Origin: an uncultured Actinomycetes bacterium
GTDB lineage: Bacteria > Actinomycetota > Thermoleophilia > UBA2241
Length of the DNA stretch: 64,000 nt
NCBI GenBank assembly: GCA_963709345.1
Contig: CAVPVX010000002.1
Coordinates: forward strand, 288,001 to 352,000
Direction of reading: 5' to 3'
Part shown: piece by piece, positions 17,530 through 56,296 of the stretch
Position numbering within the stretch: the first letter of the stretch is position 1
Layout: the number at the start of each line of letters is the position of its first letter
Translations under genes and position numbers: made by a program
Notes under the pieces: model-generated
What the model was told of the DNA's origin: nothing
Database searches by the model: none
Seen by the model: only the letters and a program-made list of their open reading frames with translations

Positions 17530-18892
17530 GGTCTCCCCCTTCGCTCTCGAGCAGCGCGTCGGCGACGCGCTCCATCCGCATCAGCCGTGAGGCCTTGACC
17601 AGCACGGCGCTACCCCGTGGGACAACCTCCTCGAGCGCCGCCACGCACTCGTCCACCGACGCGAACCAACGCTCTCCGGCCGCGCCGGTGAGATAGTCGC
17701 GGCCGAGCTCGCCGACTGCCACGAGGCGCACCCCGGCGGCCGCGCAGTGTTCGCCGACGGCGCGGTGGTAGGCGCTCGCCCCGGCGCCGAGCTCGTACAT
17801 GTCGCCGAGCACCGCGACCGGAAGCCGGCCCCCGGCGATGCTCACCAGGTGGTCGATGGCGGCCAGCATCGCCACAGGGTTGGCGTTGTACGCGTCGTTG
17901 AGGACGAGACCGCCGCCGGGAAGCTCGGCCACGGAGCCGCGAAGGTCGCTGAAGGCGACCCGGCCGGCGCCCGCTCTGGCCTCGTCGAGCCGGAACCCCA
18001 GCTCCAGAAAGGCGGCGAGGGCCGCCAGGGCGTCACGGAGGTAGTGAGCCCCGGTGAAGCTGAAGTCGAAGGCGCCGCGGCGCCCGAATGCGTCGATGAG
18101 CGCGTGCGTCCCCTCTCCGCGCCGCTCCTCCGCCACGACGTGGACGTCGGCCTCCGGCGCGCCGAAGGTGACGACGCGGCCGCGATGCCGCCGCACATGG
18201 CGACTCAGCAGCGGCTCGTCCGCCGGCACGACGACCGTCCCCCTGTCCAGCTCCTCGACGAGCTCGGCCTTCGCCGCCGCGACGTCCTCGATCGTGCCGA
18301 CAAGCTCCAGGTGGACCGGGGCGACGTTGGTGATGACGCCGACATCGGGCAGCGCGATACGTGCGAGCTCGCGGATCTGGCCGGCGCCCCGCATCGCCAT
18401 CTCGACAACGGCGACCTCCGTCTCCGGCTCGATGGCAAGGAGCGTGAGGGGGACCCCGATCTCATTGTTCAGATTGGCGTCGGTCGCGACCACGCGAGCC
18501 ACCGGGCGCAGCAGAGCCGCCAGGATGTCCTTGGTGGACGTCTTGCCGGCGCTGCCGGTGATCGCGACGACCTTGACGCCGGAGCGCCGGCGGACGGCCG
18601 TGGCGAGACGCTGCAGCGCCGTGAGGCCGTCGCCGACGACGATGCGCGATACCGAGGCGCCCAGACCGACGGCGGTCTCGTCGCGCACGACGACGGCGCC
18701 GGCGCCGGCCGCAGCGGCCGCGGCGGCGTAGTCGTCGCCGTCAAACGTATCTCCACGCAGGCCGATGAACAGGTCGCCGGGCGACAGCGTGCGCGTGTCT
18801 GTGCACACGCGCGTGACCACGGCGTCCGGATCAGCCGCCTCGAGGCGGCCGCCGCAGACGGCCGCCACCTCGCTCAGTGGCAGCGGGATCAT
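17522..18892 (-). CDS. murF: UDP-MurNAc-tripeptide--D-Ala-D-Ala ligase
   Basis: DTR, TGSAGKTSTK, NNEIGVP, NDAYNANP, GDMYELG, VKASR. Confidence 0.97.
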   Translation of the reverse strand: MIPLPLSEVAAVCGGRLEAADPDAVVTRVCTDTRTLSPGDLFIGLRGDTFDGDDYAAAAAAAGAGAVVVRDETAVGLGASVSRIVVGDGLTALQRLATAVRRRSGVKVVAITGSAGKTSTKDILAALLRPVARVVATDANLNNEIGVPLTLLAIEPETEVAVVEMAMRGAGQIRELARIALPDVGVITNVAPVHLELVGTIEDVAAAKAELVEELDRGTVVVPADEPLLSRHVRRHRGRVVTFGAPEADVHVVAEERRGEGTHALIDAFGRRGAFDFSFTGAHYLRDALAALAAFLELGFRLDEARAGAGRVAFSDLRGSVAELPGGGLVLNDAYNANPVAMLAAIDHLVSIAGGRLPVAVLGDMYELGAGASAYHRAVGEHCAAAGVRLVAVGELGRDYLTGAAGERWFASVDECVAALEEVVPRGSAVLVKASRLMRMERVADALLESEGGDRA

Positions 18893-18896
18893 GCCG

Positions 18897-36526: not shown

Positions 36527-36979
36527 TCAGATCTGGTAACGGCGCACAAGCAGGCCGGCCACGGCCGTCAGCACCAGCGTGATCGCTGCCGCCCAGACGA
36601 TGCGGTAACCCACGATCCAGAAGACGCCGGCGCCGAGCGCGATGAAGATCAGCGAGTCCTCGACGACGGCGTGCACCATGCTGAGGAACGTGCTCATGAT
36701 GAAGACCTGCCGGCGACCGAGGTCGTGCCGACGCACGTCGCGCACGATCACCCCGCCGCCGTAGGCGAGCCCGAAGAGGAAGCCGATGAGCGTAGGCGCC
36801 GCCGACCGCTCGTCGAGTCCCACGTGCCTCACGACGCCCGCCCAGGCGCGGACCACCGCACGAAAGATGCGCGTCCCCTCGAAGATCTCGAGAACGACCA
36901 TGATCGGCACGACGATGAGGAAGACGCGAAGCAGCAGGTCGGCCGACCCCGCAACGAAGGTGCGCAGCAGGTCGTCCAT
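36527..36979 (-). CDS. Nucleoside-recognition (Gate) domain membrane protein
   Basis: GFLFGLAYGGGVI, HAVVEDSLIF. Confidence 0.75.
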   Translation of the reverse strand: MDDLLRTFVAGSADLLLRVFLIVVPIMVVLEIFEGTRIFRAVVRAWAGVVRHVGLDERSAAPTLIGFLFGLAYGGGVIVRDVRRHDLGRRQVFIMSTFLSMVHAVVEDSLIFIALGAGVFWIVGYRIVWAAAITLVLTAVAGLLVRRYQI

Positions 36980-36981
36980 GC

Positions 36982-37473
36982 TCAGAGCCAGCCCATCAAC
37001 AGATTGGCCGTCGCTGCGGCAGCGAGTCCCGCGACGACACGCAGGGCGCCGAAGGCGAAGCCGTTCATCCCGGCCCTGTGGAGCACGGCGCCCTCGACCA
37101 CGAGGTTGTGCCCTATGAGGATCGCGATCGCCAGCACGGTGATCTGCCGGGCGTCGAGGTCGAGCGCCTGCATCGAGCCGACGGCCGCGTAGATGTTGAG
37201 CAGATAGCCGACGACCAGCGGGACGGCGGCGTCGCCGGGCAGGCCGAGGGCCTGCATGACCGGCCGGGCGGCCGTGGCCAACCATCCGATGACGCCGAGG
37301 TACTCGAGAACCAGCGTGATGCCGTATGCCGGGATCATGACTTTGGCGAGATCCCAGAACGTCTGCAGGCCGGAGACCAGGCCGAGGCGCAGATCCCGCC
37401 GCACGAGGGCGCCGAGGCCCTCCGGCGGGGGCGGGAGCGGCGTTCCGGGTGCGGTGTCGGTCGAGTCGGGCAT
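36982..37473 (-). CDS. Nucleoside-recognition (Gate) domain membrane protein
   Basis: PVMQALGLPGDAAVPLV, NIYAAV, HNLVVEGA. Partner of the downstream gene. Confidence 0.75.
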   Translation of the reverse strand: MPDSTDTAPGTPLPPPPEGLGALVRRDLRLGLVSGLQTFWDLAKVMIPAYGITLVLEYLGVIGWLATAARPVMQALGLPGDAAVPLVVGYLLNIYAAVGSMQALDLDARQITVLAIAILIGHNLVVEGAVLHRAGMNGFAFGALRVVAGLAAAATANLLMGWL

Positions 37474-37622
37474 GCGCCGGGCATTCTCGCACGAGCGCAC
37501 CCCCGCGTCACAGCGCGAGGCACATGCGCCGACAACGTCACCGGGGACGGAGGGCAAACGTCACCTCCGGCGGCAGCGCGTCACCCTTGAGGCTCACCGG
37601 GCACGGGGCGCACGATGCCCAC

Positions 37623-38135
37623 ATGCTCATGACCGGACACCGCATCCTCCTCGTCATCGCCCTGGTGGCCGCGGCCGTCACCGTCGTCGCCGTACTGCTG
37701 TCGGCCTGCGGAGAAGCCGACGTGCCGGCTCCGCGGGTCGCTCCCTCCGACACGCATCTCGCCTCCCTCTCGCCCAGGCCATCGCCGACGGCAAGCCCTG
37801 CGGATGCAGCGGACCGCCTCGAGGCGGTCCGCACCGTCGAGCTCTACTGCCGCCTGGTGGACCGCGGTCAGTTCGCCCGGGCGGGACTGCTGTGCTCCCG
37901 CCCTGATCTGCTCACGCGGAGGGAGCTCGCCTCACTTCGAGCCTTCCGCTTCCGCTCGGCGCGCGTCCATGCCGCTCCGGACGCGCGCACGCTCGTTCTG
38001 CTCACTCGCGTACGCGTGCGCGCGGGCCGAGGTTGTCCGCTGCCGGACGGCCTCGTCACGCTGTTCTTCACCCTGGGGAGGGTCCACACGGGCGTGGAGG
38101 GATGGCTCATCACCGCCATCGCCACGAGCCCATAA
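37623..38135 (+). CDS. Putative lipoprotein
   Basis: Hydrophobic signal with lipobox LLSAC. Confidence 0.65.
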   Translation: MLMTGHRILLVIALVAAAVTVVAVLLSACGEADVPAPRVAPSDTHLASLSPRPSPTASPADAADRLEAVRTVELYCRLVDRGQFARAGLLCSRPDLLTRRELASLRAFRFRSARVHAAPDARTLVLLTRVRVRAGRGCPLPDGLVTLFFTLGRVHTGVEGWLITAIATSP

Positions 38136-38155
38136 CCCTCGAGAAAGGGGTCCGA

Positions 38156-39304
38156 ATGAAGAGACGACAAAGGGTACTGTGGACGGCGGTGGGGCTGGCC
38201 CTCGCCGCCTGCGCCGCCGCGGCCGTATCGGCAGGGGCCGCAAACGGCGGCAGGCCGGCCGGCGGCGGTGACCCACCATCCGGCCCGGCGGCCGCCGCCA
38301 TCGGCTATCTGCAGGCCCGCGCGGCCGCCGTCACGGCCGTCGACCCGCGAGCAGTACTGGACGGCTGGGTCGCTCCCGGAAGCGGTCTGGCGGACACCGA
38401 GACGCTCATCGCCCGCGGGGCCGCCCGGCGCGCCCGGCAGCTCGGCCACTCCATCGAGTCCGTCGCCTGCGACGTGGAACTGCTCGGCGAGACGCCGTCG
38501 GCCGACGGCAGGTCGGCGACGGTCATGGTCCGCGTGATCACGACCACAACCTGGCGCGCCGCGTCGGGCGCCGTCGACGAGGAAGCCAGCGGCATCGACC
38601 ACACCCTCAGCGTCAGACTCGCCGATGGGTCGTGGTCCGTGGCCGCCGACGTCTACAGCGACGTGCTACGGCCACACTATCTGGAGGCCGCCGGCGGCTC
38701 GGCGGCTCGAGTGCGACGCGCCGGACGCGCGCTCGAGCGCGCCTCCGCCTCGATGCGTCTTCCACGCGCGGGCCGCGTGGCGCGAGCTGCCGCGCCCCGG
38801 CGGTACAGGGCGATCGTCAAGTACGACCGCGCAACGACTCAAGCCTACGCCGACAAGTACGCGCTCTCCTACAACCCCACCTACGTCGGTTTCGGCGCCG
38901 ACTGCGCCAACTTCGCCTCCCAGTGCGCCGACGCCGGCAAGATGCCGCAGACGCCCGGCGTCTGGGATACCGGCTGGTGGTACAACAAGCGTGGCACATC
39001 CTCGCCGAGGGACGACGCCTACAGTCTGAGCTGGATCAACGTCACCAAGCAGATCGCATTCTGGAACGGCCGCCGGACCGACTGGGCGAGCTCGATCAGC
39101 ACGCTTGCCCGCGGTGATTTCGTCTACTACGACTGGACCGGCGACGGCTTCTGGGACCACGTCGCCGTCCTGGCCGGCACGAACAGCGCCGGGCAGAAGG
39201 TCATCGACGCGCACAGCACCGACTACCGGCGCGTGTTCTGGAAGCTCGGCACATCGTCGACGCGGTACAGGTTCGCGAGGACGCGGCCGGAGTGGGTCGT
39301 CTGA
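38156..39304 (+). CDS. Secreted amidase_6 (CHAP/NlpC-like) domain protein
   Basis: Signal peptide, YDRA...YADKYA...DCANFASQC...GDFVYYDW...DHVA...DAHS. Confidence 0.85.
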   Translation: MKRRQRVLWTAVGLALAACAAAAVSAGAANGGRPAGGGDPPSGPAAAAIGYLQARAAAVTAVDPRAVLDGWVAPGSGLADTETLIARGAARRARQLGHSIESVACDVELLGETPSADGRSATVMVRVITTTTWRAASGAVDEEASGIDHTLSVRLADGSWSVAADVYSDVLRPHYLEAAGGSAARVRRAGRALERASASMRLPRAGRVARAAAPRRYRAIVKYDRATTQAYADKYALSYNPTYVGFGADCANFASQCADAGKMPQTPGVWDTGWWYNKRGTSSPRDDAYSLSWINVTKQIAFWNGRRTDWASSISTLARGDFVYYDWTGDGFWDHVAVLAGTNSAGQKVIDAHSTDYRRVFWKLGTSSTRYRFARTRPEWVV

Positions 39305-39448: not shown

Positions 39449-40813
39449 TCAGTCGAACCCCGGCGCCGCGTCGTGCGCCGCCATGTCGGCGTCTGTCTCG
39501 CGGCGGCGGATCTGCGCCACCGCGCCGTCGCGTGTAACGGCGAACGCCGCCGCCCGCGGGCGCGCGTTGTACGGGTTCATCATCTCCAGCGTGTACGCGC
39601 CCGTGTCGAGGAAGGCGACCACATCGCCCACAGACGTCGCCGGCGGAAAGAGCCGGTACGGCGAGTCGCCGTCGCCGGCGAAGACGTCGCCGCCGTCGCA
39701 GAGCGGGCCGGCCAGCCGGAACTCGGCCGTCGGCTCCTCGTCGGCTCGCGACGCGACGATGGTGCGGTAGTACCAGTGGTAGTTCGTGTGCTCGAGCAGC
39801 GTGTTGAAGCCGGCGTCGACCGTGAGCCAGCGCTCGTCCCCGGTCCGCCGGCCGGCTCCGTCGCGACGGCCTTTGGTCTTCTCGTTCTCGACGCGGGCGA
39901 CGACGACGGCCGCGGTCGCCGCGACCGACCGGCCCGGCTCCAGGAAGAGCGCGAGGTCGGGACGCCGCGCCTTCAACTCGCCGCCGATGACCGCCGCGTA
40001 GTCCGCGGCCGTAAGCTGCGAGCAGAAGTAGTCGCTCGGGTGGCACGTGACCGGCGCCTCACGGTACGGCACGGCGAATCCTCCACCGGCGTTCAGGAAG
40101 CGCATACGCACGCCCTCAGCCGCCTCGACCGCGGCGATGATGTCCAGAGCCGCGCCGACCGCCTGCCGGTACGGCTCAACGCTGGTGATCTGCGAGCCGA
40201 CGTGCAGGTGCAGGCCTGCCGGCTCGAGCGCGGGATCGTCGGCGGCGAGACGGAACGCCGCGACGGCGTCGTCGCGGTCGATGCCGGCCTTCCCGCCGTG
40301 GGCCGTCTCGAGACCCGGATGCGTGAGCGTGGAGACGTGTACGTCGATGCGCGGAGCAACTGGAGCGACCCGCCCGAGTGCGGCGGCGACCCCGGCAATA
40401 CGACGCAGTTCGCAGATGGAATCGACCATGAGGGCGCGCACGCCGCAGGCGACTGCGCGTTCGATCTCAGCCCTGGTCTTGGCGACCCCGTTGAAGATGA
40501 TGCGCCGCGGCTCGAACCCAGCCGCGAGGGCCTTTTCGAGCTCGCCGCCGGCGTTGACCTCGACGCCGGCGCCCTCGTCGCGGACGACGTTGAGGAACCA
40601 GCGATTGGAGCAGGCCTTGCTGGCGAAGAAGACTTCGGTCGCCGCGTGCTGCGCCCTGAAGGCGTCGATGAGACCCCTCACGTTGGCGCGGAGCCGGCGC
40701 TCGCTGAAGACGAAGAAGGGCGTCTCGCGCTCCTCGGCCAGCGCCACCAGATCGACGTCTTCAAAGCAGAGGCGTCCGTCCCGGACGGTGAGCAGTGGAT
40801 CGGTCGCCGGCAT
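39449..40813 (-). CDS. Fold-type III PLP decarboxylase, D-ornithine/D-lysine decarboxylase (DokD)-like, LysA family
   Basis: FFASK (PLP Lys), HVGSQ, GGGF, EPGR, GPLCDGGD, GAYT...YNARPR. The N-terminal GRLCFEDVDL and the CDGGD motif match Salmonella DOKDC as recalled, not LysA (CESGD). Confidence 0.8.
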   Translation of the reverse strand: MPATDPLLTVRDGRLCFEDVDLVALAEERETPFFVFSERRLRANVRGLIDAFRAQHAATEVFFASKACSNRWFLNVVRDEGAGVEVNAGGELEKALAAGFEPRRIIFNGVAKTRAEIERAVACGVRALMVDSICELRRIAGVAAALGRVAPVAPRIDVHVSTLTHPGLETAHGGKAGIDRDDAVAAFRLAADDPALEPAGLHLHVGSQITSVEPYRQAVGAALDIIAAVEAAEGVRMRFLNAGGGFAVPYREAPVTCHPSDYFCSQLTAADYAAVIGGELKARRPDLALFLEPGRSVAATAAVVVARVENEKTKGRRDGAGRRTGDERWLTVDAGFNTLLEHTNYHWYYRTIVASRADEEPTAEFRLAGPLCDGGDVFAGDGDSPYRLFPPATSVGDVVAFLDTGAYTLEMMNPYNARPRAAAFAVTRDGAVAQIRRRETDADMAAHDAAPGFD

Positions 40814-41228
40814 GGTGCCTCCTGGTTGTCGTCTGCCCGGTCAGAGAAGTATACTGCGCCCGCTTTGTCCCACCGGCTACAGGAGCTACGTGAACCGAGT
40901 GGTAGACGCAAGCCCTCACGATCATCGTCGCATCGCCTTCTCGGGCGGCAAGGTGCACGACTTCTAATACCCTTCTCCCCGACGCGCGTCCGACGACGAC
41001 ACCCGCGCGCCGCCTCGACGGTCGGTATCGACACGCCAAGATCCGTTCGGCCACGCCGGCCCGGCCCTCGTGATCACCACGGCGTCTTCGAACCGCACCA
41101 GCCCCGGATCGCCTCGGTCTTCGAGTCGGCCGGCCGGGCATGATCACCGATAAGGTGGAGCACGATGATGATTCCTTCGCAAGCGACGATACCCGAGGCT
41201 CGATCGCCTTGGGCGGAGCGCTGAGCCG

Positions 41229-42332
41229 ATGGCGGCTCTCCCCCGGCTGACGCTCGATCTCGACGCCGTCGCCGACGCGACACGGCGTCTCGCCGCGGAC
41301 CTGCACGCCCGCAGGCTGACGCTCTGTGGCGTCACCAAGTGCGTCGATGGCGAGCCGCGGGTGGGGCGGGCGCTGCTCGAGGCCGGCTGCGCCGGACTCG
41401 CCGACAGTCGCCTGCCCTCGCTGGCGCGACTCGCCGCAAACGCACTGGGGCCGCTCACGCTGATCCGGGCGCCACAGCCGCACGAGCTGGATGCCGTGGC
41501 GCAGATCGCCGACCGGGTGCTGCTCAGCGACCCGGGCGCCACCCGCGCGCTCGGAGAGCGCGCCCCCGGCGCCCCCATACAGATCCTTCTCACTGTCGAC
41601 CTGGGCGACCGCCGCGAAGGCGTCCTTCCGGACGCGGCTCCGGAGATCGCGGCCAAGCTGGCCGTCCTGCCCGGCGTCGAGCTGGCGGGCATCAGCGTCA
41701 ACTTCGCCTGCCTCTCGGGGCAACTGCCCTCGCAGGAGCTGTTCCGGCAGGCCGAGGACGTCCTGGCCGGCATCGCCGAGTGGTGCGCCGCCGAGCCCGT
41801 CCTGTCGCTCGGCGGCACCTGCGTCGTCCAGCATATCGACGGCTACACGCCCCGCTTCGCCACCGAGATCCGTTCCGGCGGCGGGCCGATCTACGGCTAC
41901 GACTTCGTCAGCGACGCCAGTATTGCCGGCCTCGAGCGCGCCGACCCCGTGCTCACGGCGGCCGTGCTCGAGTGCTACCGCAAGCCGCCGGCGCCGTCGT
42001 GCCCCGGCGGTCTCGACGCCTTCGGCCACGTGCCGGAGGTCGAGTTACCCGACCGGGACGCCTGGTACGCGATGCTCGCCGTGGGCAGGCGCGACATGGA
42101 GCCGCAAGGGCTCCGGCCGCTCCTGCCGGGCGCGTACCTCGCCGGCGCGACGAGCGACGTGAGCGTGCTGATCACGCCCGAGCCGCTGCGGCCCGGCGGC
42201 GAGGTGGAGTTCGCAGTCGACTACGACGCGCTCGTGCGCGCCGTCACGTCGCCGTTTGTCGCCGTGGAGTACGTCGGCCGCGGCGAGGCGGCGCCCGCGA
42301 CCGGCTCGGGCGTCTCGAAGGGAGACTCATGA
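41229..42332 (+). CDS. Alanine/ornithine racemase-family PLP enzyme (Orr-like)
   Basis: GVTK (PLP Lys), LADSR, DLGDRREG, NFAC, KP...DAFGHVP. Stop overlaps the next ATG (ATGA). Confidence 0.88.
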   Translation: MAALPRLTLDLDAVADATRRLAADLHARRLTLCGVTKCVDGEPRVGRALLEAGCAGLADSRLPSLARLAANALGPLTLIRAPQPHELDAVAQIADRVLLSDPGATRALGERAPGAPIQILLTVDLGDRREGVLPDAAPEIAAKLAVLPGVELAGISVNFACLSGQLPSQELFRQAEDVLAGIAEWCAAEPVLSLGGTCVVQHIDGYTPRFATEIRSGGGPIYGYDFVSDASIAGLERADPVLTAAVLECYRKPPAPSCPGGLDAFGHVPEVELPDRDAWYAMLAVGRRDMEPQGLRPLLPGAYLAGATSDVSVLITPEPLRPGGEVEFAVDYDALVRAVTSPFVAVEYVGRGEAAPATGSGVSKGDS

Positions 42333-43785
42333 CCAGCCACGCCGACGGACGCTACGTCGGGCCGAGGCGGCCGCTCCGGCTCCTGGAGGCGGCCGACGTG
42401 GAACGCATCCATCAGGCCTCGCTCGACGTGCTCGCCGAGACAGGCGTCATGTTCCACTCGCAGCGGGCGCTCGACGTGCTCGAGGCCCACGGCGCCACGG
42501 TGGACCGCGAGACGACCGTCGCCCGCATTCCCGCAGCGGCCGTCGCCGAGGCGCTCACTACTCTCCCCGCCGGATTCACCCTCGGCGGGCGCACCCCCGA
42601 GTTCGATCTCCCCCTCGACGGGGAGCACGCCTACCTCTGCTCCGACGGCTGCGCCACCTTCGTGCGTGAAGCCGACGGCACGGTGCGGCCGAGCGTCAAG
42701 CAGGACGTCTACGACGCGGCTCGCGTCGTCGACGGCCTGCCCAACCTCTCGGCCACCTCGGCGCTCGTCTCGGCCCAGGACACGCCCGAGGAGAGCCGCG
42801 TCCTGCACGAGTTCGACGCCTGCGTGCGCGCCTCGCGCAAGCACAGCGTCGTCGTCAGCATCAAGGACGCCGCCGAAGCCAGGCCGCTGATCCGCATGGC
42901 GGAGGCGATCGCGGGCGGGGCGGCGGAACTCAAGGCTCGCCCGGCCTTCTCGGTCGTCCTCTGCACGGTGAGCCCGCTGCACCAGGAGCGCTTCGGCATG
43001 GAGCTCGCCTTCGAACTGGCCGAGGCGGGCATCCCGATCTGCTCTACCCGATGCCGATCCTCGGCGCAACGGCGCCGGTCACGCCCGCCGGCGTGGCCGT
43101 CGTCAACACCACCGAGATCCTCGCCGCGGTCACCGCCGTGCAGCTCGCCTGCCCCGGCGCGAAGATCGTCCACGCCGGCGGCCCGACCTCGCTCTTCATG
43201 CGCACGGGCGCCTACTTCGCCAACGTCCCTGAGGCCCTGCTCCTGCGCGCCGCGCAGGCGCAGATGGCCTCGTTCTACGGAATGCCCGCCGGCCTCGGGT
43301 GGGGCGGGACCAAAGCCAAACAGCCTGAAGCTCAAGCTGCCTACGAGAACACGCTCGGCATGGTGCTCGAGATGGCGGCCGGCGCGGACTTCCTCTTCGG
43401 CGCCGGCCTCCTCGACAGCGTGCAGCAGATGTCGCTCGAGGAGCTGGTGATCGCCGACGAGGTGTTCGGCATGGTCACGCACCTGCTGCGCGGCGTCGCG
43501 GTCGACCGCGAGACTCTGGCGGTCGACCTCATCAAGAAGCTCGGCTTCCGCGGCGACTACCTGTTCGAGCCGCACACACGCGATCACGTGCGCGAGCTGT
43601 GGCGGGCGCGCCTCGGCGAGACCGGCACCTACGAAGGCTGGAAGAGCGCGAGCAGCCCGCGTCTGGAAGACAAGGCGCGGGCCGTCGCCGATGGCCTCCT
43701 CGCCGCCCCCGCACCCGAGTTCCCCGCGGACCTGGACCGCGAATTCAGCGAGATCATCGCCGCGGCCGAGTCCGGCCGCGTCTGA
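42329..43785 (+). CDS. Non-pyrrolysine MttB-family methyltransferase (one base missing near 43040)
   Basis: RIHQASLDVLAETGV, TVSPL, MPILGATAPVT, QMASFYGMP, GAGLLDS, ETLAVDLI. About 485 aa if repaired. Confidence 0.88.
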
Positions 43786-43796
43786 AAGGATCCACC

Positions 43797-45261
43797 ATGG
43801 CATACGCAGACAAGTGCTACGTCGGCAAGCGAGTGAAGCTCGAGCTGCTCGACGAGACCGAGATCGGGCAGATCCACGAGGCGACCCTCGACGTGATCGA
43901 GAGCGTCGGCGTCAAGTTCCACTCGCAGAGCGCGCTCGACATCCTCGAGGCCCACGGCGCGACCGTGGACCGCGAGACGACGGTGGCGAAGATCCCGGCC
44001 GCCGTCGTCGAGCAGGCGATGAGCACCGCGCCGCACGAGTACACCCTCGGCGCGCGCAACCCCGAGTACGACCTGCCGCTGGACGGTGAGCACGTCTACA
44101 TCAGCTCCGACGGCTGTGGCGTCTTCTACCGCGACCCGACCACCGGCGAGGTGCGCTCCTCGCGCAAGGAGGATCTCGAGAACTGCGCCCGGGTCGTGCA
44201 GGCGCTCGACAACGTCAGCGCCACGAGCGCCGTGGTCAGCGCCCAGGACTGCCCGACCGAGACACGCGTGCTGCACGAGTTCGACGCCTGCGTGCGCAAC
44301 TCCGAGAAGCACAGCATCGTCGTCAGCATCAAGGAGGACTGGGAGGCGCGCAGCCTGATCAAGATGGCCGAGGCGATGGCCGGCGGCAAGGAAGAGCTGA
44401 AGCGCCGGCCGATGTTCACCACCATCATCTGCACCGTGAGCCCGCTCCACCAGGAGCGCTACGGCATGGACCTCGCGCTGACTCTCGCCGAGGCCGGCAT
44501 CCCCGTGAGCCTCTACCCCATGCCGATCCTCGGCGCGACGGGCCCCATCACGATCGCCGGCTCGCGCCGTGGTCAACAACGCCGAGTTCCTGAGCGGCGC
44601 CGTGCTCGTACAGCTCGCCCACCCGGGCGCCCCCGTGATGCACGGCGGCGGCCCCACGGCGATGTACATGAGCTCCGGCGCCTACGCGAGCAACTCGCCG
44701 GAGGCCCTGCTGCTGAGAAGCTGCCAGGGCCACATGGCCGATTTCTACGGCGTGCCGGCCTGGTACGGCGCCGGCGCCACCACCGCCAAGGAACCCGGCA
44801 TCCAGAGCGCCTACGAGAACGCCCTGGCGATGTTCATGGCGTACTCCAACGGCGCCGACGTCACGTTCGGCACCGGCCTGCTCGACGGCTCGCGCATCCT
44901 CTGCCTCGAGAACATGGTCGTGGACGACGAGATCATCGGCATGGTCAAGCGCATCCTCACGGGCATCGAGGTGAGCGATGAGACGCTGGCCGTCGATCTC
45001 ATCAAGAAGATGGGCTTCAACGGCAACTACCTCTTTGACAACCACACTCGAGCGCACGTGCGCGAGCTGTGGCAGGCCAAGCTCGGCGAGACCGGCAGCT
45101 ACGAGGCCTGGAAGACCGCCGGCGCGAAGAGCACGACCGAGAAGGCCCAGGACAAGGTGGCCGAGATCCTCGCCGCCGACCCCGTGCCGTTCCCGGCCGA
45201 CCTCGGCGCCGAGTTCGACGCGATCATCGCCGCGGCGGCGAAGGAGGCCACGGCCCGCTAG
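43797..45261 (+). CDS. Non-pyrrolysine MttB-family methyltransferase (one extra base near 44565)
   Basis: IHEATLDVIESVGV, TVSPL, GATGPITIAG, FYGVP, GTGLLDG, ETLAVDLI. Close paralog of the upstream gene, about 487 aa if repaired. Confidence 0.88.
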
Positions 45262-45448
45262 AGACCGCGCCGCGCGACGAGGGCGGGCACGGCGGGAGCC
45301 GAGTGCCGAGCTGCAGCCGCCGGATCGAGGTCGTCGTGAAGGAGCGGACCCGGCTGACCCTCCCCGCCGGGGCTGCGATTGCGGTAGCATGAGGCGCGGG
45401 CGGCGCTGCCGCCCGCGCCTCGCGCGCACCCCAAGCCGGAGCGACGCC

Positions 45449-47521
45449 GTGACCGCCACCAGAGTCCGCGAAGAGGGCTTCAGCAAAGACGCCGACAAGC
45501 TCATCCGCAGGCTCAGCCTGGTCGCCCTGCTGCTCTCGCGCCGCGGGCAGCCGGTGACCGTCGCCGAGATCCGCAGCCGCGTAGAGGGCTACCCGATGAT
45601 GACGGAGGAAGCCTTCAAGCGACGCTTCTACGAGGACCGCCGCGAACTCGAGGGGCTCGGCATCGTGATCGCCGCGGATGACGGCGCGAGCGGCGGCGGG
45701 CCGGAGCTCTACAGCCTGCCCGCCGACGCCTACTACCTCGCCCCCGTCGAGCTCACCGGTGACGAACTGGCGGCGCTGGCCGCCTGCCTCGCGGTGCTTG
45801 AAGACCGCTTCGCCTATTCCCAGCCCATGCGCCTGGCGCTGCTCAGCCTGGCACAGGGCCGCCCGGACCTGCTCGGCGAGGCGGAGACGCCGCCGCTCAC
45901 GGTCGTCCCCGAGACACGCGCACCGGCGACGGCGTTGCCGAAGCTCCAGGCGGCCGTCGCGGAGCGGAAGACCGTCAAGTTCAGGTACTACGCCATCGGC
46001 CGCGACCAGGAGATGGAGCGCGTCGTCGACCCGTACGGCCTGCAGCTCGTCGCCGGCGAGTGGTACCTCGTCGGCCGTTGCCATCTGAGGGACGCCCGGA
46101 GGACCTTCCGCCTCTCGCGGATCCGCTCGCGCGTCACGCACGCGACCAGAGCGCCGCACGACTTCGTCGTCCCCGGCGGCTTCGACCTCGCAGCCTATCG
46201 CGACCGCCCCTCGTGGCAGCTGGCGGAGCCTCGCGGCGCGGCGCGCGTCCGCGTGTCCGCGGCGATGGCGTGGTGGGTCCAGGCGCACTGGGCCCACTGC
46301 GGGTCCGTGACGCCGCTGGACGACGGCGCGATCGTCTACGAGACCCCCTACGCCGACGCGAGACCGCTGCTCGGCTGGGTGCTCGGTCTCGCCGACGAGG
46401 CGGAGCTCCTCGAGCCGCCGGAACTGCGCGCCGAACTCGGCGAGCGCCTTGAGCGGCTCGCCGGCATGCTGGCTGCGCCACCTGCTCAGGCGCCGGCCCG
46501 GCCGGCCGGCGGCGCGACCGATCCCGGACGGCGGCGGCGGCGCCCCGCCGACGACTGGCGTGTCGAGGTCGACCGCTTCACCCGACTCACGGCGCTGACG
46601 AGCTACCTCCTGCGCCGCTGCGCCGGCGACGAGGCCGTGTTCGACCTCGCCGAGATCCGGTCCGCCCTCGGCGTCGGCGCCGACGAACTGCGCGCCGACG
46701 TGCGCCTGCTCAACCTCGTCAACTTCGGCGCCGACGGAGCCTTGCTCTTCGCCGAGTTCGAGGGCCGGATGAAGCTGCGCGTGACCTGCGACCTGGCAGG
46801 CCCGGCGCTGGCGCGCCCCGCCCGCCTCTCGCCTCTTCAGGCCGACACGCTGCTGCTCGCGATCGAGCTCGTCGGCGGCCAGGTCCCGACCGCCTCCGGC
46901 GGCGCCCTCACCTCCGCCGCCGCGAAGCTCTGGGCCGCACGCGGAGAAGGCGCGTCGACCCTCGCGAGCGGTGACCTGCTGGTGCCCGCCGGCGACGTCC
47001 TCACCACCGTCAACTCGGCCGTCGCCGCGCGCCGGCTCCTCGAGATCGAGTACTGGACCGAAGGCACCGACCGGGTCACCAGGCGGACCGTGGAGCCCTA
47101 CCTGCTGGTGCACAGCCGCGGTGAGTGGTACTACGTCTGTTGGTGCCGCACCGCAGGGGGCACGCGTGTGTTCCGCGTGGCGACCACCAAGAGCGCCCGC
47201 CCGCTCGACCAGACGTTCACCCCCAGGCCCGAGGTGGAGCTGGATGTCTATCGCCGCGAAGGCATCCCCACGTCCCGCAGCTACGCGCCTCACACCGCGA
47301 CGGTGTGGTACAGCCCCGCCGTCGCCCGATGGATCGCCGAACGCCAGCCGGTGCGCCTGCTCGCCGACGGCGCCTGCCTCGCTCCTCAGCCTTACGTCGA
47401 CGAACGCTGGCTGGCCGGCCACCTGCTGCGCTTCGCCGACCAGGCGTGCCCGCTCGACCCGCCCGAGGCGACGGCCGGCGTCCTCGCCACTGTCGAGCGC
47501 CTGCGGGAGCGCTACCGGTGA
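45449..47521 (+). CDS. pafBC: Fused PafBC transcriptional regulator (two HTH-WYL-WCX modules)
   Basis: PafB-like AFKRRFYEDRREL...VDPYGL...EWYLVG...FRLSRI, then PafC-like RFTRL...DVRLL...VEPY...WYY...RVFRV. GTG start after GGAG. Confidence 0.88.
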   Translation: MTATRVREEGFSKDADKLIRRLSLVALLLSRRGQPVTVAEIRSRVEGYPMMTEEAFKRRFYEDRRELEGLGIVIAADDGASGGGPELYSLPADAYYLAPVELTGDELAALAACLAVLEDRFAYSQPMRLALLSLAQGRPDLLGEAETPPLTVVPETRAPATALPKLQAAVAERKTVKFRYYAIGRDQEMERVVDPYGLQLVAGEWYLVGRCHLRDARRTFRLSRIRSRVTHATRAPHDFVVPGGFDLAAYRDRPSWQLAEPRGAARVRVSAAMAWWVQAHWAHCGSVTPLDDGAIVYETPYADARPLLGWVLGLADEAELLEPPELRAELGERLERLAGMLAAPPAQAPARPAGGATDPGRRRRRPADDWRVEVDRFTRLTALTSYLLRRCAGDEAVFDLAEIRSALGVGADELRADVRLLNLVNFGADGALLFAEFEGRMKLRVTCDLAGPALARPARLSPLQADTLLLAIELVGGQVPTASGGALTSAAAKLWAARGEGASTLASGDLLVPAGDVLTTVNSAVAARRLLEIEYWTEGTDRVTRRTVEPYLLVHSRGEWYYVCWCRTAGGTRVFRVATTKSARPLDQTFTPRPEVELDVYRREGIPTSRSYAPHTATVWYSPAVARWIAERQPVRLLADGACLAPQPYVDERWLAGHLLRFADQACPLDPPEATAGVLATVERLRERYR

Positions 47522-47790
47522 TCGCCGCCGACCCCGCCTACGCAGCGTACCTCGCGGGCTGGGCCTTCTTCGCCTACGGGCCGCAGTTCGTCCTCTGCCT
47601 CCTGTTCGCCTGGTGGGCGGCGCGCCGCGCCGGCGGTGACCGGCTGAACTGGATGGCGGTGGGCTTCCTCTGGTCGCTTGTCCCGTTCGCCGGGGTCGTC
47701 GTCATGTGGTGGCTCTGGCGCGGCGCGGAGAAGCGGAGGCCGGCGCGCGACACGTCGACCGGCGCCGACGGACGGACCGCCACACCGTGA
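47518..47790 (+). CDS. Small Trp-rich membrane protein
   Basis: 90 aa, hydrophobic helices, GTGA overlaps with both neighbours. Confidence 0.7.
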   Translation: MIAADPAYAAYLAGWAFFAYGPQFVLCLLFAWWAARRAGGDRLNWMAVGFLWSLVPFAGVVVMWWLWRGAEKRRPARDTSTGADGRTATP

Positions 47791-49073
47791 ACGAGGCGCC
47801 CTGGGTCGCCTGCGGCGCGGCGCGCCTCGGCGTGCCCCGCGCCGACGCCTTCGAGCCGCCTGCGGAGCGCGTGCCGCTCCCGGACCTCGAGGCGGCTCTG
47901 GCGCCGGCGCTCGCCCGGCCACTCGGCGCGCCGCGCCTGCGCGAGCTGGCGCGCGGCGCACAGTCGGTGGTCGTGACCATCCCCGACGCGTCCCGACCTT
48001 GCCCGAGCCCACCGGTACTCGAGGCTCTGCTGGGCGAGCTTGAGGCGGCCGGCGTTTCCGCGAACGCCGTGACGGTCGTCGTCGGCTGTGGTCTGCATGC
48101 AACGACGGGTCCGGCCGGCCGCGAACTGCTCGCCGGCCGTGAGCTCGCCGGCCGCGTCGAAGTGATCGACGCCCAGGGCATCGAGTCCGAGGTCGCCGAC
48201 CTGGGCACGACCGGCGACGGCACGCCGGTACGCATCGCCCGGCGCGTCGCCGCCGCGGATCTCGCGATCACCGTCGGCATCGTCGAGCCGCACCTGTACG
48301 CCGGCTTCTCCGGTGGCGTCAAGGGCGTCGCCATCGGCTGCGCCGGTCACGAGACCATCGCGTGGACACACCGCCCCGCCTTCATCTCGGCGCCCGGCGT
48401 CACGCTGGGCAGGCTCCGCGGCAATCCGTTCCAGTCGACACTCCGCGAGATCGCCGCACGCACGCCGCTCGGCTGGGGCGTCAATCTCGTCGTAGACGAC
48501 GGCGGACGCGCCGCCGGCGTGTACGCCGGCGATCCGGCCGCCGTCCAGGAAGCCCTGGCGAGCGTGCACGCCGGCGCGTGGCTGCGCTCCGTCGCGGGCC
48601 GCTTCGACGTCGTCGTCGCCGGCGTGTGCCGGCCCAAGAGCGATAACCTGTACCAGGCGAGCCGGGCGGCTACCTCGATCGGGCTCGCCGCCCGGCCGGC
48701 CGCCACGGAGGGCGGCCTCATCGTGATCTGCGCCGACCTGCCCGACGGCGCCGGGCGAGGGCCGGGAGAGCTCAACTTCCTGGCCGTCCTCGAAGCCGCC
48801 GCTTCGCCGGCGGAGCTCACGGCTCGCGGGCTTCGTGAGCCGCTCGGACCGGGTGGCCAGCGCGCCTTCGTCGTCGCCCGCGTCCTCGAACGGCGGCGCC
48901 TCGCCGTCGTGGGCGCCGGCGACCCGGCGTTCCTCGCGCCGCTCGAGCGCCTCGGCGTGGCCGCGTTCGACTCTGTGGACGCCGCTCTCGCCGCCGAGGA
49001 CCGGCGGCTCGGTCACCGCGCGCGAGTGCTGGCGGTGGCGGACGCGCTCACCACCACGGTGTCCGTGGTCTGA
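47787..49073 (+). CDS. LarA-family nickel-pincer racemase/epimerase
   Basis: PDASRP, GCGLH, EPHLYAGFSGGVK, NLYQASRA. Confidence 0.85.
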   Translation: MNEAPWVACGAARLGVPRADAFEPPAERVPLPDLEAALAPALARPLGAPRLRELARGAQSVVVTIPDASRPCPSPPVLEALLGELEAAGVSANAVTVVVGCGLHATTGPAGRELLAGRELAGRVEVIDAQGIESEVADLGTTGDGTPVRIARRVAAADLAITVGIVEPHLYAGFSGGVKGVAIGCAGHETIAWTHRPAFISAPGVTLGRLRGNPFQSTLREIAARTPLGWGVNLVVDDGGRAAGVYAGDPAAVQEALASVHAGAWLRSVAGRFDVVVAGVCRPKSDNLYQASRAATSIGLAARPAATEGGLIVICADLPDGAGRGPGELNFLAVLEAAASPAELTARGLREPLGPGGQRAFVVARVLERRRLAVVGAGDPAFLAPLERLGVAAFDSVDAALAAEDRRLGHRARVLAVADALTTTVSVV

Positions 49074-49142
49074 CGTTCACTTCCTTCACCCGAGGTTTAG
49101 CCGCCGGTAAGAATTCAGGCAGGACCCCAGAGGAGGTGAGCC

Positions 49143-50288
49143 ATGAACGGCATGCGGATCGGTCGACTGTTCGGCATCGACGTGGCCATCCATCCGAGTT
49201 GGTTCTTCGTTCTCGTCCTCGTCACCTTCACGCTCGCCACGAGCTTCTTCCCCGTCGGCTACCAGGATTGGGGGCCCGTCGCGACTTGGGGCGCCGCCCT
49301 GTCCGCCACACTCCTCCTGTTCGGCTCCGTGCTGGCGCACGAGTTCGGCCACTCGCTCGTGGCGCGGTCGCAGGGTATCCCCGTGCGCGGCATCACGCTC
49401 TTCCTCCTCGGGGGCGTCGCGAGCCTCGAACGGGATCCGGACACCCCGGGCCGCGAAGCCTGGATGGCGATCGCCGGTCCGCTGGTCAGCGTGGCGATCG
49501 CAGCAGGCTCCCTTGGTCTGGCTCTCGTCCTGCCCGGCCCCGAGCAACTGGTGGCCGTGCTCCTGTACCTGGGGCTGGCAAATGCCGTCCTGGTCGTGTT
49601 CAACCTCCTCCCCGGCTTCCCGCTGGACGGCGGGCGCGTGCTCCACGCCCTTCTCTGGTGGCGGTCGCACAACCTCCTGCGCGCAACGAAGCAGGCGGCG
49701 GTCGTCGGCCAGGTCTTCGCCTGGGCGTTCATCTCCCTGGGCGCCCTCCAGTTGTTCGGCGGTGGAGGCTTCGGCGGTGTCTGGCTGGCGCTGATCGGCT
49801 GGATGATGATCCAGGCGGCGCGGGCGACTGCCGGCCAGGCGGAGCTCGAACATGATCTCGCCGGCGTGCCTGCAAAGCGCCTCATGACCCGCCCGGCCGG
49901 CTGGCTCCCGCCGTACGTGACTGTCGAGTGGGCGACCCACGACCGGTTCACCGACTACGAGTCCCGCTGCCTCCCAGTCGCCGGAGACGGGATCGACGCC
50001 GACTACGACGGGCTGGTGTGCGCCGCAGATCTCGAACGTTCGCCCCGCGACCGCTGGAATCTCGACCGCGTACGCGACGTGATGGTGCCGGCCGAGGCGC
50101 TCCCGTCCGTGTCCCCAGACGACGACGCCACCGCCGTCCTTCGAGCTATGCGCGATCGCTCCGCCGACCGCGCCGTCGTGGTCGACGAGGAGGGTCACCT
50201 GCTGGGGTTCATCGACCGGGCGGCGGTCGCGCGCTACACGCGCTACCCGCATCGCCGGCACGAGACGCCCGCTCCCAAGGCCGCCTAG
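49143..50288 (+). CDS. Site-2 protease (M50) with CBS pair
   Basis: HEFGH, AGPLVS, FNLLPGFPLDGG, C-terminal VRDVM...VVDEEGHLLG. Confidence 0.93.
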   Translation: MNGMRIGRLFGIDVAIHPSWFFVLVLVTFTLATSFFPVGYQDWGPVATWGAALSATLLLFGSVLAHEFGHSLVARSQGIPVRGITLFLLGGVASLERDPDTPGREAWMAIAGPLVSVAIAAGSLGLALVLPGPEQLVAVLLYLGLANAVLVVFNLLPGFPLDGGRVLHALLWWRSHNLLRATKQAAVVGQVFAWAFISLGALQLFGGGGFGGVWLALIGWMMIQAARATAGQAELEHDLAGVPAKRLMTRPAGWLPPYVTVEWATHDRFTDYESRCLPVAGDGIDADYDGLVCAADLERSPRDRWNLDRVRDVMVPAEALPSVSPDDDATAVLRAMRDRSADRAVVVDEEGHLLGFIDRAAVARYTRYPHRRHETPAPKAA

Positions 50289-53972: not shown

Positions 53973-55427
53973 TCAGCGGCGCAGCTCAGCGTCTGCCGCC
54001 GCGAGAATCCTCGTGAGCTCGGCGGCCTGGGCCTCGTCGAGCGGCTCGGGCCGGTACTCGCGCCACAGCCCCTCGGCCCTCTCGCGCGCGACCTCGACCG
54101 GGTCGCGGAACGCGCCGCCGGGGCCGGCCTCATGAGTGATCGCCGGCGTCACCGCTCCGCGCATGTGCCGGCGCGTGTGCCTGTTGCCGAGGAAGTGGCC
54201 GCCGGGACCGACCTCGGCGATGGCGTCCAGGGCGATCTCCTCGTCCTCGAAGCCGATGTCCATCACGGAGTAGCGGGCGCGGTGATAGATGTCGTCACCG
54301 AGGATGAGGTGCTCGGGATAGAAGAGCGTGTAGACGTTGACGAGCCCGATGCTGGGCATCAGGTCCGACCCCTCCTGCGCGGCCTGCGCGAGGTCGAGCG
54401 CTTCCTCGACGCCGGCTTGCCAGGTGCCGGGCGCCGGCGAGTCGGTACCGCAGGCGGCCGACTCGGCGGGCACCCCCCAGTGGTGCGCGAGTTCCGTGCC
54501 CAGGGCTCGAATGCGGCCGTCGAGCGGGAAGCTGACGAAGTTGCCGGAGCGCGGGTCGGCAAAGCTCTGCATGGTCGAGTGCAGCACCGGCGCACCGGGG
54601 CTGGCCAGCTGCAGGACGACGGTCGCGGCGACCAGCTCGGCCGAGCCGAGGGCGAAGGCGCCTGCCTTGGTGGCCGGCGCGGTGGTGCCGAGCGTCGGCA
54701 TGGTGACCCACGTGACGGGCACGCCGGCGGCGGCGAACACGAGTGCCGCCTCGATCGCGTCCTTGTCCACCACGAGCGGCGAGATGGTGCCGATGAGGTC
54801 GCTCATGACAGGGCGGCGGCGTAACTCCTCGGCGCTGCCGGCGATGACCGTCGCCATCTCCACGGCGTAGCGGGCTTCGCGCTCGCCGTTGACCATCCCC
54901 TGCAGGTGCTTGACGGTGTTGTTCCAGCCGGCGTCCAGCTCGTGTAGTTGCGCCGTCTCGCCGCAGTCCCCGGCGCTCACGGTCGGCCACCAGAACGAGA
55001 TGCTGGAGAGGTAGTCTTGCAGCCGGGAGACGTCGGCCAGGTCGGCCTTCGTCGACTGGCGCCGCTCGCGCGTCGCGAAGTCGATGATCTCGACGCCGCA
55101 GCCGTCGGTGGTGCAGTACGTGCGGCCGTCCCCGACGGCGATGTCGCACGAGGCGTCGCGAGCGCCGAGGGGGAAGCTTCGCGGCGCCGTCGCCATCGCG
55201 TCGAGCACGAGGCTCGGCGGGAGCTTCGCGATCTGCTTCTCGCGGTCGACCCGAGCCCCATTCTCGGCGAGGACGTCGAGCGCCTTGTCGCTCTGGAAGC
55301 GGACGCCCACGCCCTCGAGGATGTCCAGCGTCGCCTGCTTCAGGCGGTCGAGTCGCTCATCGGAGTGATAGCTGAAGGTGAACGCCGGCTCGAACGGCGC
55401 GATGGACAGACGGTCGATGGGTGCCAC
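53973..55427 (-). CDS. Non-pyrrolysine MttB-family methyltransferase (intact, divergent paralog)
   Basis: KQATLDILEGVGV, TISPL, GTTAPAT, HHWGVP, EVGPGGHFL. GTG start after AGGAGG. Confidence 0.9.
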   Translation of the reverse strand: MAPIDRLSIAPFEPAFTFSYHSDERLDRLKQATLDILEGVGVRFQSDKALDVLAENGARVDREKQIAKLPPSLVLDAMATAPRSFPLGARDASCDIAVGDGRTYCTTDGCGVEIIDFATRERRQSTKADLADVSRLQDYLSSISFWWPTVSAGDCGETAQLHELDAGWNNTVKHLQGMVNGEREARYAVEMATVIAGSAEELRRRPVMSDLIGTISPLVVDKDAIEAALVFAAAGVPVTWVTMPTLGTTAPATKAGAFALGSAELVAATVVLQLASPGAPVLHSTMQSFADPRSGNFVSFPLDGRIRALGTELAHHWGVPAESAACGTDSPAPGTWQAGVEEALDLAQAAQEGSDLMPSIGLVNVYTLFYPEHLILGDDIYHRARYSVMDIGFEDEEIALDAIAEVGPGGHFLGNRHTRRHMRGAVTPAITHEAGPGGAFRDPVEVARERAEGLWREYRPEPLDEAQAAELTRILAAADAELRR

Positions 55428-55549
55428 GAGGCAGCCTCCTGGTCGCGGTCGCCCATTCATACCAGACCCTCCGCCTGCTCACCAGAGAGGCGATCCTTTC
55501 GAGGCTTTCGCCAGATCCCGCACGAGATTCGCAAAGACGCGGGCGACGG

Positions 55550-56188
55550 TCATTCCTCACCGCGCGTGACGTAGCGACGGCGTATCAGATACTGGGCAAG
55601 GGGGATCGACAGCCAGGCGTACTGCACAGCCTCCGTCCCCAAGGGCAACAGGACCAGTGAACCCAGGAAGATGAGGGCGACCACGAGGCCACGCCAGATG
55701 GAGAACCTGGTACTGCGTTCTGACACATGTGGCGAGCAGAGACGGTGACCCAGCAGGGCGTAGGCCGCAAGGCCGGAGGTCGCGAGGCCGACCAGCGCCA
55801 GCGTGACCGCATAGACGGCGACGGCGAGAGGCTGGTCGCCGCGCTCCCCGACGAGCGAGGACGTGAAGGGCTGGACGACGATGAACAAGAGCACCAGCAT
55901 ATTGAGCCAGATGAGGCGGGCGTCGTACCGCTCGATCACCGAGAACAGCCGGTGATGGACCACCCAGTACGTGCCGATCACGAGGAAGCTGATCGCGAAG
56001 CTGAGAAAGGAGGGCAACAGGCCGGCGAGCTCCGCGGCGAGATCGCCGCTCGCCGGCACCTCGAGCTGGAGCGCGAGCAGGGTGATGGCGATGGCAAACA
56101 CGCCGTCGCTGAATGCGGCGATGCGCGCCACCTCCCTCGACTGGTCGCGCGCCGACTCCCCGGTGACTGATGCTCTCTCTGCCATCAC
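55550..56188 (-). CDS. TMEM175 (DUF1211) potassium channel family protein
   Basis: RIAAFSDGVFAIAITLL, SFLVIGTYWVVHH, PFTS. Confidence 0.92.
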   Translation of the reverse strand: MMAERASVTGESARDQSREVARIAAFSDGVFAIAITLLALQLEVPASGDLAAELAGLLPSFLSFAISFLVIGTYWVVHHRLFSVIERYDARLIWLNMLVLLFIVVQPFTSSLVGERGDQPLAVAVYAVTLALVGLATSGLAAYALLGHRLCSPHVSERSTRFSIWRGLVVALIFLGSLVLLPLGTEAVQYAWLSIPLAQYLIRRRYVTRGEE

Positions 56189-56296
56189 GCCCTATCTTGC
56201 GCCCCCGAGGCTGAATCCCTGCCTGTCGCCGCGGACCCGGGCGGCGCTGCCGTGCCCGTTTGATCGTGAAGATCCTGTGCGCGTCTCGTCCGCCGC

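Follow-up and report, generated by a model that had tools for sequence, protein, structure and literature searches.

The 64,000-nucleotide (nt) stretch of DNA analysed here, called the window throughout, lies on contig CAVPVX010000002.1 of assembly GCA_963709345.1 (C2:288001-352000), from an uncultured bacterium of the class Thermoleophilia. The host genome comprises 3.1 Mb in 11 contigs and has a G + C content of 69%. An interval of four genes within the window encodes a pyridoxal 5′-phosphate (PLP)-dependent decarboxylase (DC), a PLP-dependent racemase (RAC), and two tandem methyltransferases of the MttB superfamily (MttB1 and MttB2). An earlier note, made from the sequence alone, had described DC as divergent from a racemase whose stop codon overlaps the start of the first of two tandem MttB genes, and all four genes lie at the positions and in the order that it gave (Table 1). 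The TGA of RAC overlaps the ATG of MttB1 as ATGA at 42329-42332 (CTCATGACCA), and the same overlap is found in the relative L038. MttB2 follows MttB1 after a spacer of 11 nt, with the sequence AAAGGA 8 nt upstream of its start, and an AGGAGG ribosome site lies upstream of DC. From this layout, RAC is predicted to be co-transcribed and, through the ATGA, translationally coupled with one or two non-pyrrolysine MttB methyltransferases, and DC is predicted to be transcribed divergently from the intergenic region that it shares with the RAC-MttB unit. What is new at this locus is that a divergent OrnR-type racemase is coupled to non-pyrrolysine MttB proteins; the pairing of decarboxylase and racemase is a known enterobacterial module.

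Table 1. The decarboxylase-racemase-MttB interval and its neighbours, in positions of the window.
Feature	Position	Strand	Basis or remark
DC, putative DokD-clade PLP decarboxylase, fold type III, 454 amino acids	39449-40813	-	Pfam Orn_Arg_deC_N and Orn_DAP_Arg_deC
Divergent DC-RAC intergenic region, 415 bp	40814-41228	.	Alignment of 48 distinct intergenic sequences
RAC, putative divergent OrnR-family PLP racemase, 367 amino acids	41229-42332	+	Pfam Ala_racemase_N
MttB1, non-pyrrolysine methyltransferase of the MttB superfamily	42329-43785	+	Pfam MTTB, two pieces; intact orthologue 485 amino acids
MttB2, tandem paralogue of MttB1	43797-45261	+	Pfam MTTB, two pieces; intact orthologue 487 amino acids
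Two adjacent Gate-domain membrane protein genes	36527-37560	-	Pfam Gate, open reading frames; syntenic with DC
Secreted Amidase_6-domain protein	38033-39304	+	Between the Gate genes and DC
Fused PafBC-like regulator (two WYL, two WCX, HTH_PafC)	within 45395-50288	+	First of three genes after the MttBs
LarA-like (lactate-racemase family) gene	47706-49073	+	Downstream of the MttBs
M50 protease with CBS domain	49143-50288	+	Downstream of the MttBs

The synteny that the earlier note proposed to look for is conserved family-wide. Of 24 genomes sampled from the genus, 23 have an orthologue of RAC (65-88% identical), and the next best match to RAC in a 400-genome sample of the phylum is 36% identical. 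MttB2-type orthologues (at least 55% identical) occur in 47 of 55 genomes from the family, with none in 245 genomes from other families of the class and none in the 400 of the phylum sample. MttB1 stands directly downstream of RAC at every one of 18 orthologue loci, and MttB2 comes next unless the contig ends. DC was found at 55 loci (55-93% identical), all from metagenome-assembled genomes of Thermoleophilia or Actinomycetota. The full arrangement, with DC divergent from RAC-MttB1-MttB2, is present at 45 of these; six are cut by contig ends and are consistent as far as their sequence goes, three hold DC-like genes (55-57% identical) standing alone, and one, on a short contig, is described below. 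At 11 of the 45 loci with the full arrangement, the tblastn alignments of RAC and MttB1 meet at a single coordinate, as an overlapping stop and start would produce. At 18 of 18 further loci, from seven genera, MttB is likewise preceded by RAC or a RAC-like gene, and over these loci identity goes down to about 59-69% for RAC and 52-66% for DC. The unit with its divergent decarboxylase thus recurs in at least seven genera of one Thermoleophilia family of soil and sediment actinobacteria. These counts are not independent events, because the sets of loci overlap in genomes and all belong to one lineage.

RAC is the hub of this arrangement: it remains beside the MttBs at loci without DC and beside DC at loci without the MttBs, and where RAC itself is replaced, another racemase of its own family takes over. 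For example, six genomes that form a subclade of the genus (G003, G006, G009, G444, G435, and G654) carry RAC-MttB1-MttB2 without DC beside it. Whole-genome searches of G003, G006, and G009 returned no DC orthologue, only LysA at 34-37% identity. In two genomes of genus g250 (L132:4656-5711 and L147:4314-5324), a different OrnR-family paralogue takes the place of RAC between DC and MttB1; the copies in the two genomes share 74% identity with one another, 31-35% with RAC, and 37-40% with Salmonella OrnR. The replacement has the look of non-orthologous displacement inside a single protein family, and since the slot was refilled by another OrnR-family gene, a racemase appears to be needed at this position. 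Other variants also occur: genus g255 has one MttB where most genera have two, genus g252 has only the Gate genes and DC divergent from the PafBC-like gene, and two genomes of 1.7-1.8 Mb (98% complete) have no DC, RAC, MttB1/2, or PylS.

The sole NCBIfam match of RAC is Orr (NF040742), at 137 bits against a cut-off of 480, and its matches in the PDB are only weak ones, to alanine racemase. On the same model Salmonella OrnR scores 353.5 bits, a second paralogue in the host genome (C2:180355-181401) 336, the gene in the g250 slot 315, and a paralogue 48% identical to RAC 144. RAC is 29.5% identical to Salmonella OrnR (locus L152), and in their alignment OrnR positions 36, 129, 161, 164, 220, 222, and 349 correspond to K, R, N, C, R, G, and Y in RAC. 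All seven residues, among them the catalytic pair of Lys37 and Cys, are conserved in 46 distinct orthologues. In the study by Phillips et al. (PMC13397332), OrnR is described as using Lys-36 and Cys-164, not a Lys/Tyr pair, and the catalytic Cys as present in all 945 collected members of the family. The 120 matches listed for RAC in a homologue search are all at least 69% identical to it, and the ESM Atlas returned only generic MTTB and Ala_racemase_N clusters. RAC is best described as a divergent branch of the OrnR family with intact catalytic residues, and this divergence would fit a substrate that is not simply ornithine. The label ‘ornithine racemase’ that the earlier note gave it is not secure because RAC belongs to this divergent branch: the Lys/Cys pair of the family is indeed present, but the name is too specific for a protein that falls so far below both OrnR and the host's own second paralogue on the Orr model.

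In their two pieces, MttB1 covers positions 28-250 and 257-493, and MttB2 positions 27-268 and 272-488, of the 500-position MTTB profile (PF06253). The two are sisters that share 58.6% identity, and neither exceeds 42% identity with any other paralogue in their own genome; MttB1 lies on the longer branch and MttB2 is the more conserved of the pair. Neither contains a TAG codon, and Gly and Ala stand at the column where seven full-length paralogues of the same genome carry TAG. A total of 45 MttB1 and 49 MttB2 distinct intact orthologues were recovered, and the same residues are found at this column in the 45 of MttB1 and in 46 of the 49 of MttB2. The in-frame TAG that TIGR02369 (pyrrolysine-type MttB) takes as its criterion is absent from both proteins, which bears out the description of the tandem MttBs as non-pyrrolysine enzymes. 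Their closest solved relatives are MtgB of Desulfitobacterium hafniense (2qne, 9yce), at 236 bits, and MttB of Methanosarcina barkeri, at 225. The residues of MtgB that bind glycine betaine are given as Y97, R312, H348, and F356 in PMC13080624. When these are mapped, with an offset of +2, onto chain 9yce, the MttB1 and MttB2 orthologues have C, G or W, G, and V or S in their places, so that none of the four is kept in the 45 and 49 distinct intact sequences. The MttBs therefore appear, on comparison of orthologues, to be under selection and not to be MtgB-like. A selenocysteine in MttB1 orthologues, for which an entry of ‘1 TGA’ had made a candidate, was ruled out; it is the terminal stop that was read through, and no TGA lies within the gene.

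The host genome as a whole is rich in such genes, with 64 MTTB matches at about 50 loci. At seven other MttB loci of the host a B12-binding corrinoid gene is found within 0.5 kb, and a RACo-type activase is encoded elsewhere in the genome, together with three URO-D matches beyond the top-scoring one, which is taken to be HemE.

DC scores 372.5 bits with the NCBIfam model for DokD (NF052544), below its equivalog cut-off of 700, and 327.9 bits with that for lysA (TIGR01048), whose cut-off is 297.9; Salmonella DokD reaches 899.4 bits on the DokD model. The solved structures closest to DC are six Salmonella DokD entries, at 302-306 bits, and the best diaminopimelate (DAP) decarboxylase reaches 206. 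DC is 38.5% identical to the public record of Salmonella DokD, compared with 26% for the host's own LysA. For a tree, an exhaustive search was made of 1.84 billion representatives, and the best 50 full-length of the 150 matches listed were labelled with NCBIfam. The tree itself was built by a quick method from 46 rows, with six frameshift-like or partly matching rows left out. DC and P0122 are sister to a clade that holds a bona fide DokD (P0144, 724 bits), with a Shimodaira-Hasegawa-like approximate likelihood ratio test (SH-aLRT) support of 93. This group is nested within a group of 99% support, most of which shares a CDxGD motif, and true LysA sequences, including the host's own, form a separate clade of 99%. 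The placement that the earlier note had proposed to make thus puts DC with DokD and outside LysA, and the structure scores of 306 versus 206 bits agree with it.

The motif read in the earlier note, GPLCDGGD in place of CESGD, is confirmed: DC contains LAGPLCDGGD, with CDGGD where DAP decarboxylases have CESGD. The same motif is found in the DokD PDB alignment and in P0144, and it does not define DokD by itself because it is common to a wide set of DokD-like proteins. The segments FASKAC, GPLCD, and PYN are conserved among 58 distinct DC orthologue sequences. The host has a separate LysA at C11:47031-48350, which scores 463 bits, carries CESGD, and is followed by a homoserine-dehydrogenase-like gene. 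We therefore describe DC as a putative DokD-clade enzyme that is not an equivalog by the NCBI cut-off, and for which activity on D-ornithine and D-lysine is predicted. As a separate observation, a second DC paralogue, 54-55% identical, stands in tandem directly after DC in L099, L106, and L108 (e.g. L108:9492-10820), and stand-alone copies of a DC-like type of 55-57% identity occur in L121, L122, and L151.

Several known systems share parts of this arrangement. The OrnR-DokD pair of Salmonella (STM2358/STM2360) also joins an OrnR-family Lys/Cys racemase to a DokD-type decarboxylase with GPLCDGGD. There, dokD, an APC permease gene, the racemase gene, and a permease gene follow one another on the same strand, a sigma-54 regulator is divergent, and MttB is absent, whereas here DC and the racemase are divergent, the racemase heads an MttB operon, and the membrane protein neighbours are of the Gate-domain type instead of APC permeases. 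The proteins are also distant, with the 29.5% identity of the racemases accompanied by rounded scores of 353 versus 137 bits on the Orr model and 899 versus 372 on the DokD model. The physiological role of the Salmonella pair is called unknown by its authors (PMC13397332). In the 500-kb Salmonella records filed as plasmids (L152, NZ_CP148876.1 454469-467782), the dokD gene of 899 bits is annotated as ‘alanine racemase’; the flanking folC, purF, and argT suggest that these records are pieces of chromosome.

MtgB, MtpB, MtcB, MtyB, and the choline enzyme are, like MttB1 and MttB2, full-length MTTB proteins without a pyrrolysine codon, and the match of the MttBs to MtgB is about 235 bits. Characterised non-pyrrolysine MttBs are known from Eubacterium, Desulfitobacterium, and methanogenic archaea, whereas the host here is an actinobacterium. 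Their substrates include glycine betaine, proline betaine, carnitine, gamma-butyrobetaine, and choline, and to our knowledge all of the characterised enzymes act on small quaternary amines of this betaine type. As in those systems, the host also encodes corrinoid proteins, an activase, and URO-D-type methyltransferases. The differences are that the four glycine-betaine-binding residues of MtgB are lost in MttB1 and MttB2, that no corrinoid gene lies in or near the operon, and that its leading gene encodes a PLP racemase. A similar logic is reportedly found in the catabolism of proline betaine and hydroxyproline betaine in Paracoccus and Rhodobacter, where a racemase or epimerase is said to be encoded with N-demethylases; that betaine racemase is reportedly not a PLP enzyme, nor are the demethylases said to be corrinoid MttBs. 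The Orr of ornithine fermentation in Clostridium sticklandii is of the same family as RAC and has the conserved catalytic Cys (PMC13397332). It differs in its cluster, since Pfam scans of the gene frames in the window found no aminomutase, dehydrogenase, or thiolase, and in the distance of RAC from the Orr cut-off (137 versus 480 bits). A literature search found nothing that links a PLP racemase with MttB, trimethyllysine with MttB, or ornithine racemase with trimethylamine methyltransferase. The view of the earlier note that no described pathway joins the three families holds to the extent that no paper on a racemase and MttB was found, but the decarboxylase-racemase part of the combination was already known from Salmonella.

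Our preferred reading, to which we assign a probability of roughly 0.45, is that the locus represents a lineage-specific cluster of catabolic genes, belonging to one Thermoleophilia family, in which the racemase and the MttBs, and DC where it is present, act jointly on a methylated amino acid. The MttBs would demethylate a quaternary (N-trimethyl) amine with a free alpha-amino-acid end and hand the methyl group on to a corrinoid protein whose gene lies elsewhere in the genome. The racemase would invert the alpha-carbon of this substrate or of its demethylated product, and DC, where present, would convert the D-form to a diamine. PLP racemases require a free alpha-amino group and the known non-pyrrolysine MttBs require a quaternary ammonium, and for these two reasons the simplest joint substrate would be a diamino acid trimethylated on its side chain. 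That the substrate is in fact side-chain-trimethylated ornithine or lysine is a guess from this chemistry, and we consider it doubtful. Equally doubtful is the wider proposal that MttB1 and MttB2 are the first enzymes of the MttB superfamily to act on an amino acid with a free alpha-amino group (trimethylated ornithine or lysine, or their D-isomers), together with a specialised racemase and a DokD-like enzyme.

A number of observations weigh against this joint role. No gene for a corrinoid protein stands beside the cluster: none of the 24 B12-binding matches in the genome lies in the window, and the nearest is about 60 kb away. The density of MttB genes, at 64 matches in 3.1 Mb, raises the odds that such a gene came to lie here by chance. 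The three families that the earlier note combined are conserved together across the family, but they do not form an obligate trio, as the six genomes without an adjacent DC already show. In genus g256, DC is divergent from RAC and RAC is followed directly by the PafBC-like gene, with no MttB, and on the short contig L103 MttB1 is directly divergent from DC and RAC is absent. Since the DC-RAC pair occurs alone in g256 and in Salmonella, it does not need an MttB. Among 20 distant OrnR-family loci (30-35% identical) in other Actinomycetota, none has an MttB or DC within 7 kb, so that the link between RAC and MttB has not been seen to arise twice; no MttB or DC lies alongside the 46-48% identical RAC paralogues in L050 and L051 either. 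Furthermore, the flanking PafBC, LarA, M50, and Gate genes are syntenic across the family as well, and because all of the loci come from one family with syntenic neighbours, plain inheritance could explain much of the conservation.

These points lead to the main rival explanation, which we regard as a real possibility short of even odds: that the locus consists of two unrelated modules sharing a transcript. One would be an OrnR-DokD-type pair that converts L-ornithine or L-lysine to the D-isomer and then to putrescine or cadaverine, as in Salmonella, and the other would be MttBs for ordinary betaines, inserted behind the promoter of the racemase. The occurrence of the DC-racemase pair without MttB in g256, and in Salmonella with APC permeases (PMC13397332), is as this would predict, and the single MttB of one genus against the two of most others is expected of an add-on. 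The compact host genome carries MttB genes in great number, at roughly 50 loci, and the PafBC, LarA, and M50 genes show that neighbours without an obvious functional link can be just as syntenic. The explanation fits less well with the behaviour of RAC, which stays with the MttBs in six genomes without an adjacent DC, three of them without DC anywhere. This retention would be unexpected if RAC only fed DC. RAC has also diverged while a more canonical OrnR-like gene was kept elsewhere in the genome, and it is coupled to MttB1 by the ATGA. The retention of RAC without DC, together with the racemase paralogue that fills the slot where RAC was displaced, weakens the case for two separate modules.

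Each of the two MttB genes is broken in this assembly by a single-base frameshift, as the earlier note had hinted by referring to ‘repaired’ MttBs. In MttB1 one base is missing near 43039-43041 (GGC ATC CCG ATC TG- CTC TAC), and in MttB2 there is one extra base near 44565 (GGC TCG c GCC GTG). Relatives have single open frames, of 485 and 487 amino acids in L038, and both halves lie in the same frame in most loci. No indexed public run contains the window itself, the best having a share of 0.20 of its sampled words, and the indels were compared with contigs of related strains. These contigs have one base more at 43038/39 (runs X2, X3, and X5) and one base fewer at 44563/64 (all of the cover in X1 and part of that in X5). 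One environmental contig of 255 nt matches with three mismatches and a single gap, which is to say without the extra base of MttB2. The essential gene ftsW is likewise split in the window, at 13659-15109 on the minus strand (profile positions 3-124 in 14429-15109 and 133-355 in 13659-14498), which indicates indel errors in the assembly; murD is whole in the same window.

The two MttB indels are very probably consensus errors of the assembly and not biology, because the relatives and environmental contigs are intact at these points and ftsW is also split. The alternative, that the MttB genes are true pseudogenes in this organism and the operon is decaying here though intact in its relatives, is unlikely, but it is not without support. 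The frame is broken in both genes, and at neither site is there a homopolymer run; both indels are within about 10 nt of a GATC. About 13 of some 51 MttB loci in the host look split, into two or three frames, and this share is above that of other genes of the window, among which, including the 43 frames of one scan, only ftsW is split. The excess could be real decay or could reflect errors tied to a sequence motif. A genome-wide scan for frameshifts in pairs of open reading frames gave 9 cases, but it missed the known MttB splits. Against decay stand the split in ftsW, whose product is essential, and the environmental contig without the extra MttB2 base. The relatives assembled in few long contigs have scattered splits in DC, RAC, PafBC, LarA, and the region generally, a pattern of long-read consensus errors. 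In addition, the reading frame of each MttB is fully preserved apart from its single indel.

A third explanation, that the racemase and DC serve pyrrolysine metabolism, is very improbable. Their role would be to provide D-ornithine instead of PylB, or else to clear it and so guard against a misbuilt analogue. The product of PylB is a D-ornithine derivative, and the genome does decode pyrrolysine, with pylB (11843-12853), pylD (14136-14921), tRNA-Pyl (CUA; 14991-15063), and pylS (18405-19130) on contig C11. However, PylB is present above its model cut-off, so that no bypass is needed. The PylS-positive genomes G006, G009, G444, G435, and G654 have no adjacent DC, and G006 and G009 have none at all; the PylS-positive G439 and G016 have no RAC orthologue, and the adjacent MttBs contain no TAG. 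Both the bypass of PylB and the control of D-ornithine were rejected on this pattern of presence and absence of DC, RAC, PylS, and PylB. PylS was found in 16 of 20 family genomes checked, and a literature search on pyrrolysine in this group brought up no paper mentioning it among those listed. For the pyrrolysine system and TAG-bearing MttBs of the host, examples are C11:11843-19130 (pyl genes), C6:35712-37106, and C7:341800-343254.

Least credible of all is the idea that DC is the organism's own DAP decarboxylase, LysA, since it passes the lysA cut-off but scores higher with the DokD model and with the DokD structures, carries CDGGD, lies outside the 99% LysA clade, and coexists with a separate CESGD LysA that G003, G006, and G009 retain although they have no DC orthologue.

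If the preferred reading of a joint catabolic cluster is correct, a racemase-led operon would point to a substrate with a free alpha-amino group and so widen the chemistry of the MttB superfamily. It would also mean that methylated basic amino acids have a further, new fate in soils and sediments. On the doubtful wider proposal, this would be a B12-dependent route from trimethylated lysine or ornithine to one-carbon units and polyamines in a pyrrolysine-decoding actinobacterial family. The cluster offers a testable context for the DokD/OrnR pair, and the host family deserves attention as actinobacteria with a complete pyrrolysine system and about 50 MttB paralogues in about 3 Mb.

The intergenic region between DC and RAC contains two blocks that are conserved in the family across the 48 distinct sequences, at 40846-40865, which holds the palindrome AGTATACT, and at 40942-40972. 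They are probably two divergent promoters or an operator and are put forward as candidates. The 260 nt nearest to RAC are not conserved, and a search for a riboswitch or leader RNA upstream of RAC gave no match in Rfam, whether at the gathering score or with E ≤ 1. On the other side of DC, the amidase gene is missing in genera g252 and g255, where the Gate genes lie directly downstream of DC; the Gate proteins may be the transporter partner of DC. Finally, a third intact non-pyrrolysine MttB paralogue of 501 amino acids (MTTB, 217 bits) lies 9 kb downstream of the cluster at 53976-55478 on the minus strand, and it adjoins a gene for a TMEM175-type channel at 55553-56191.

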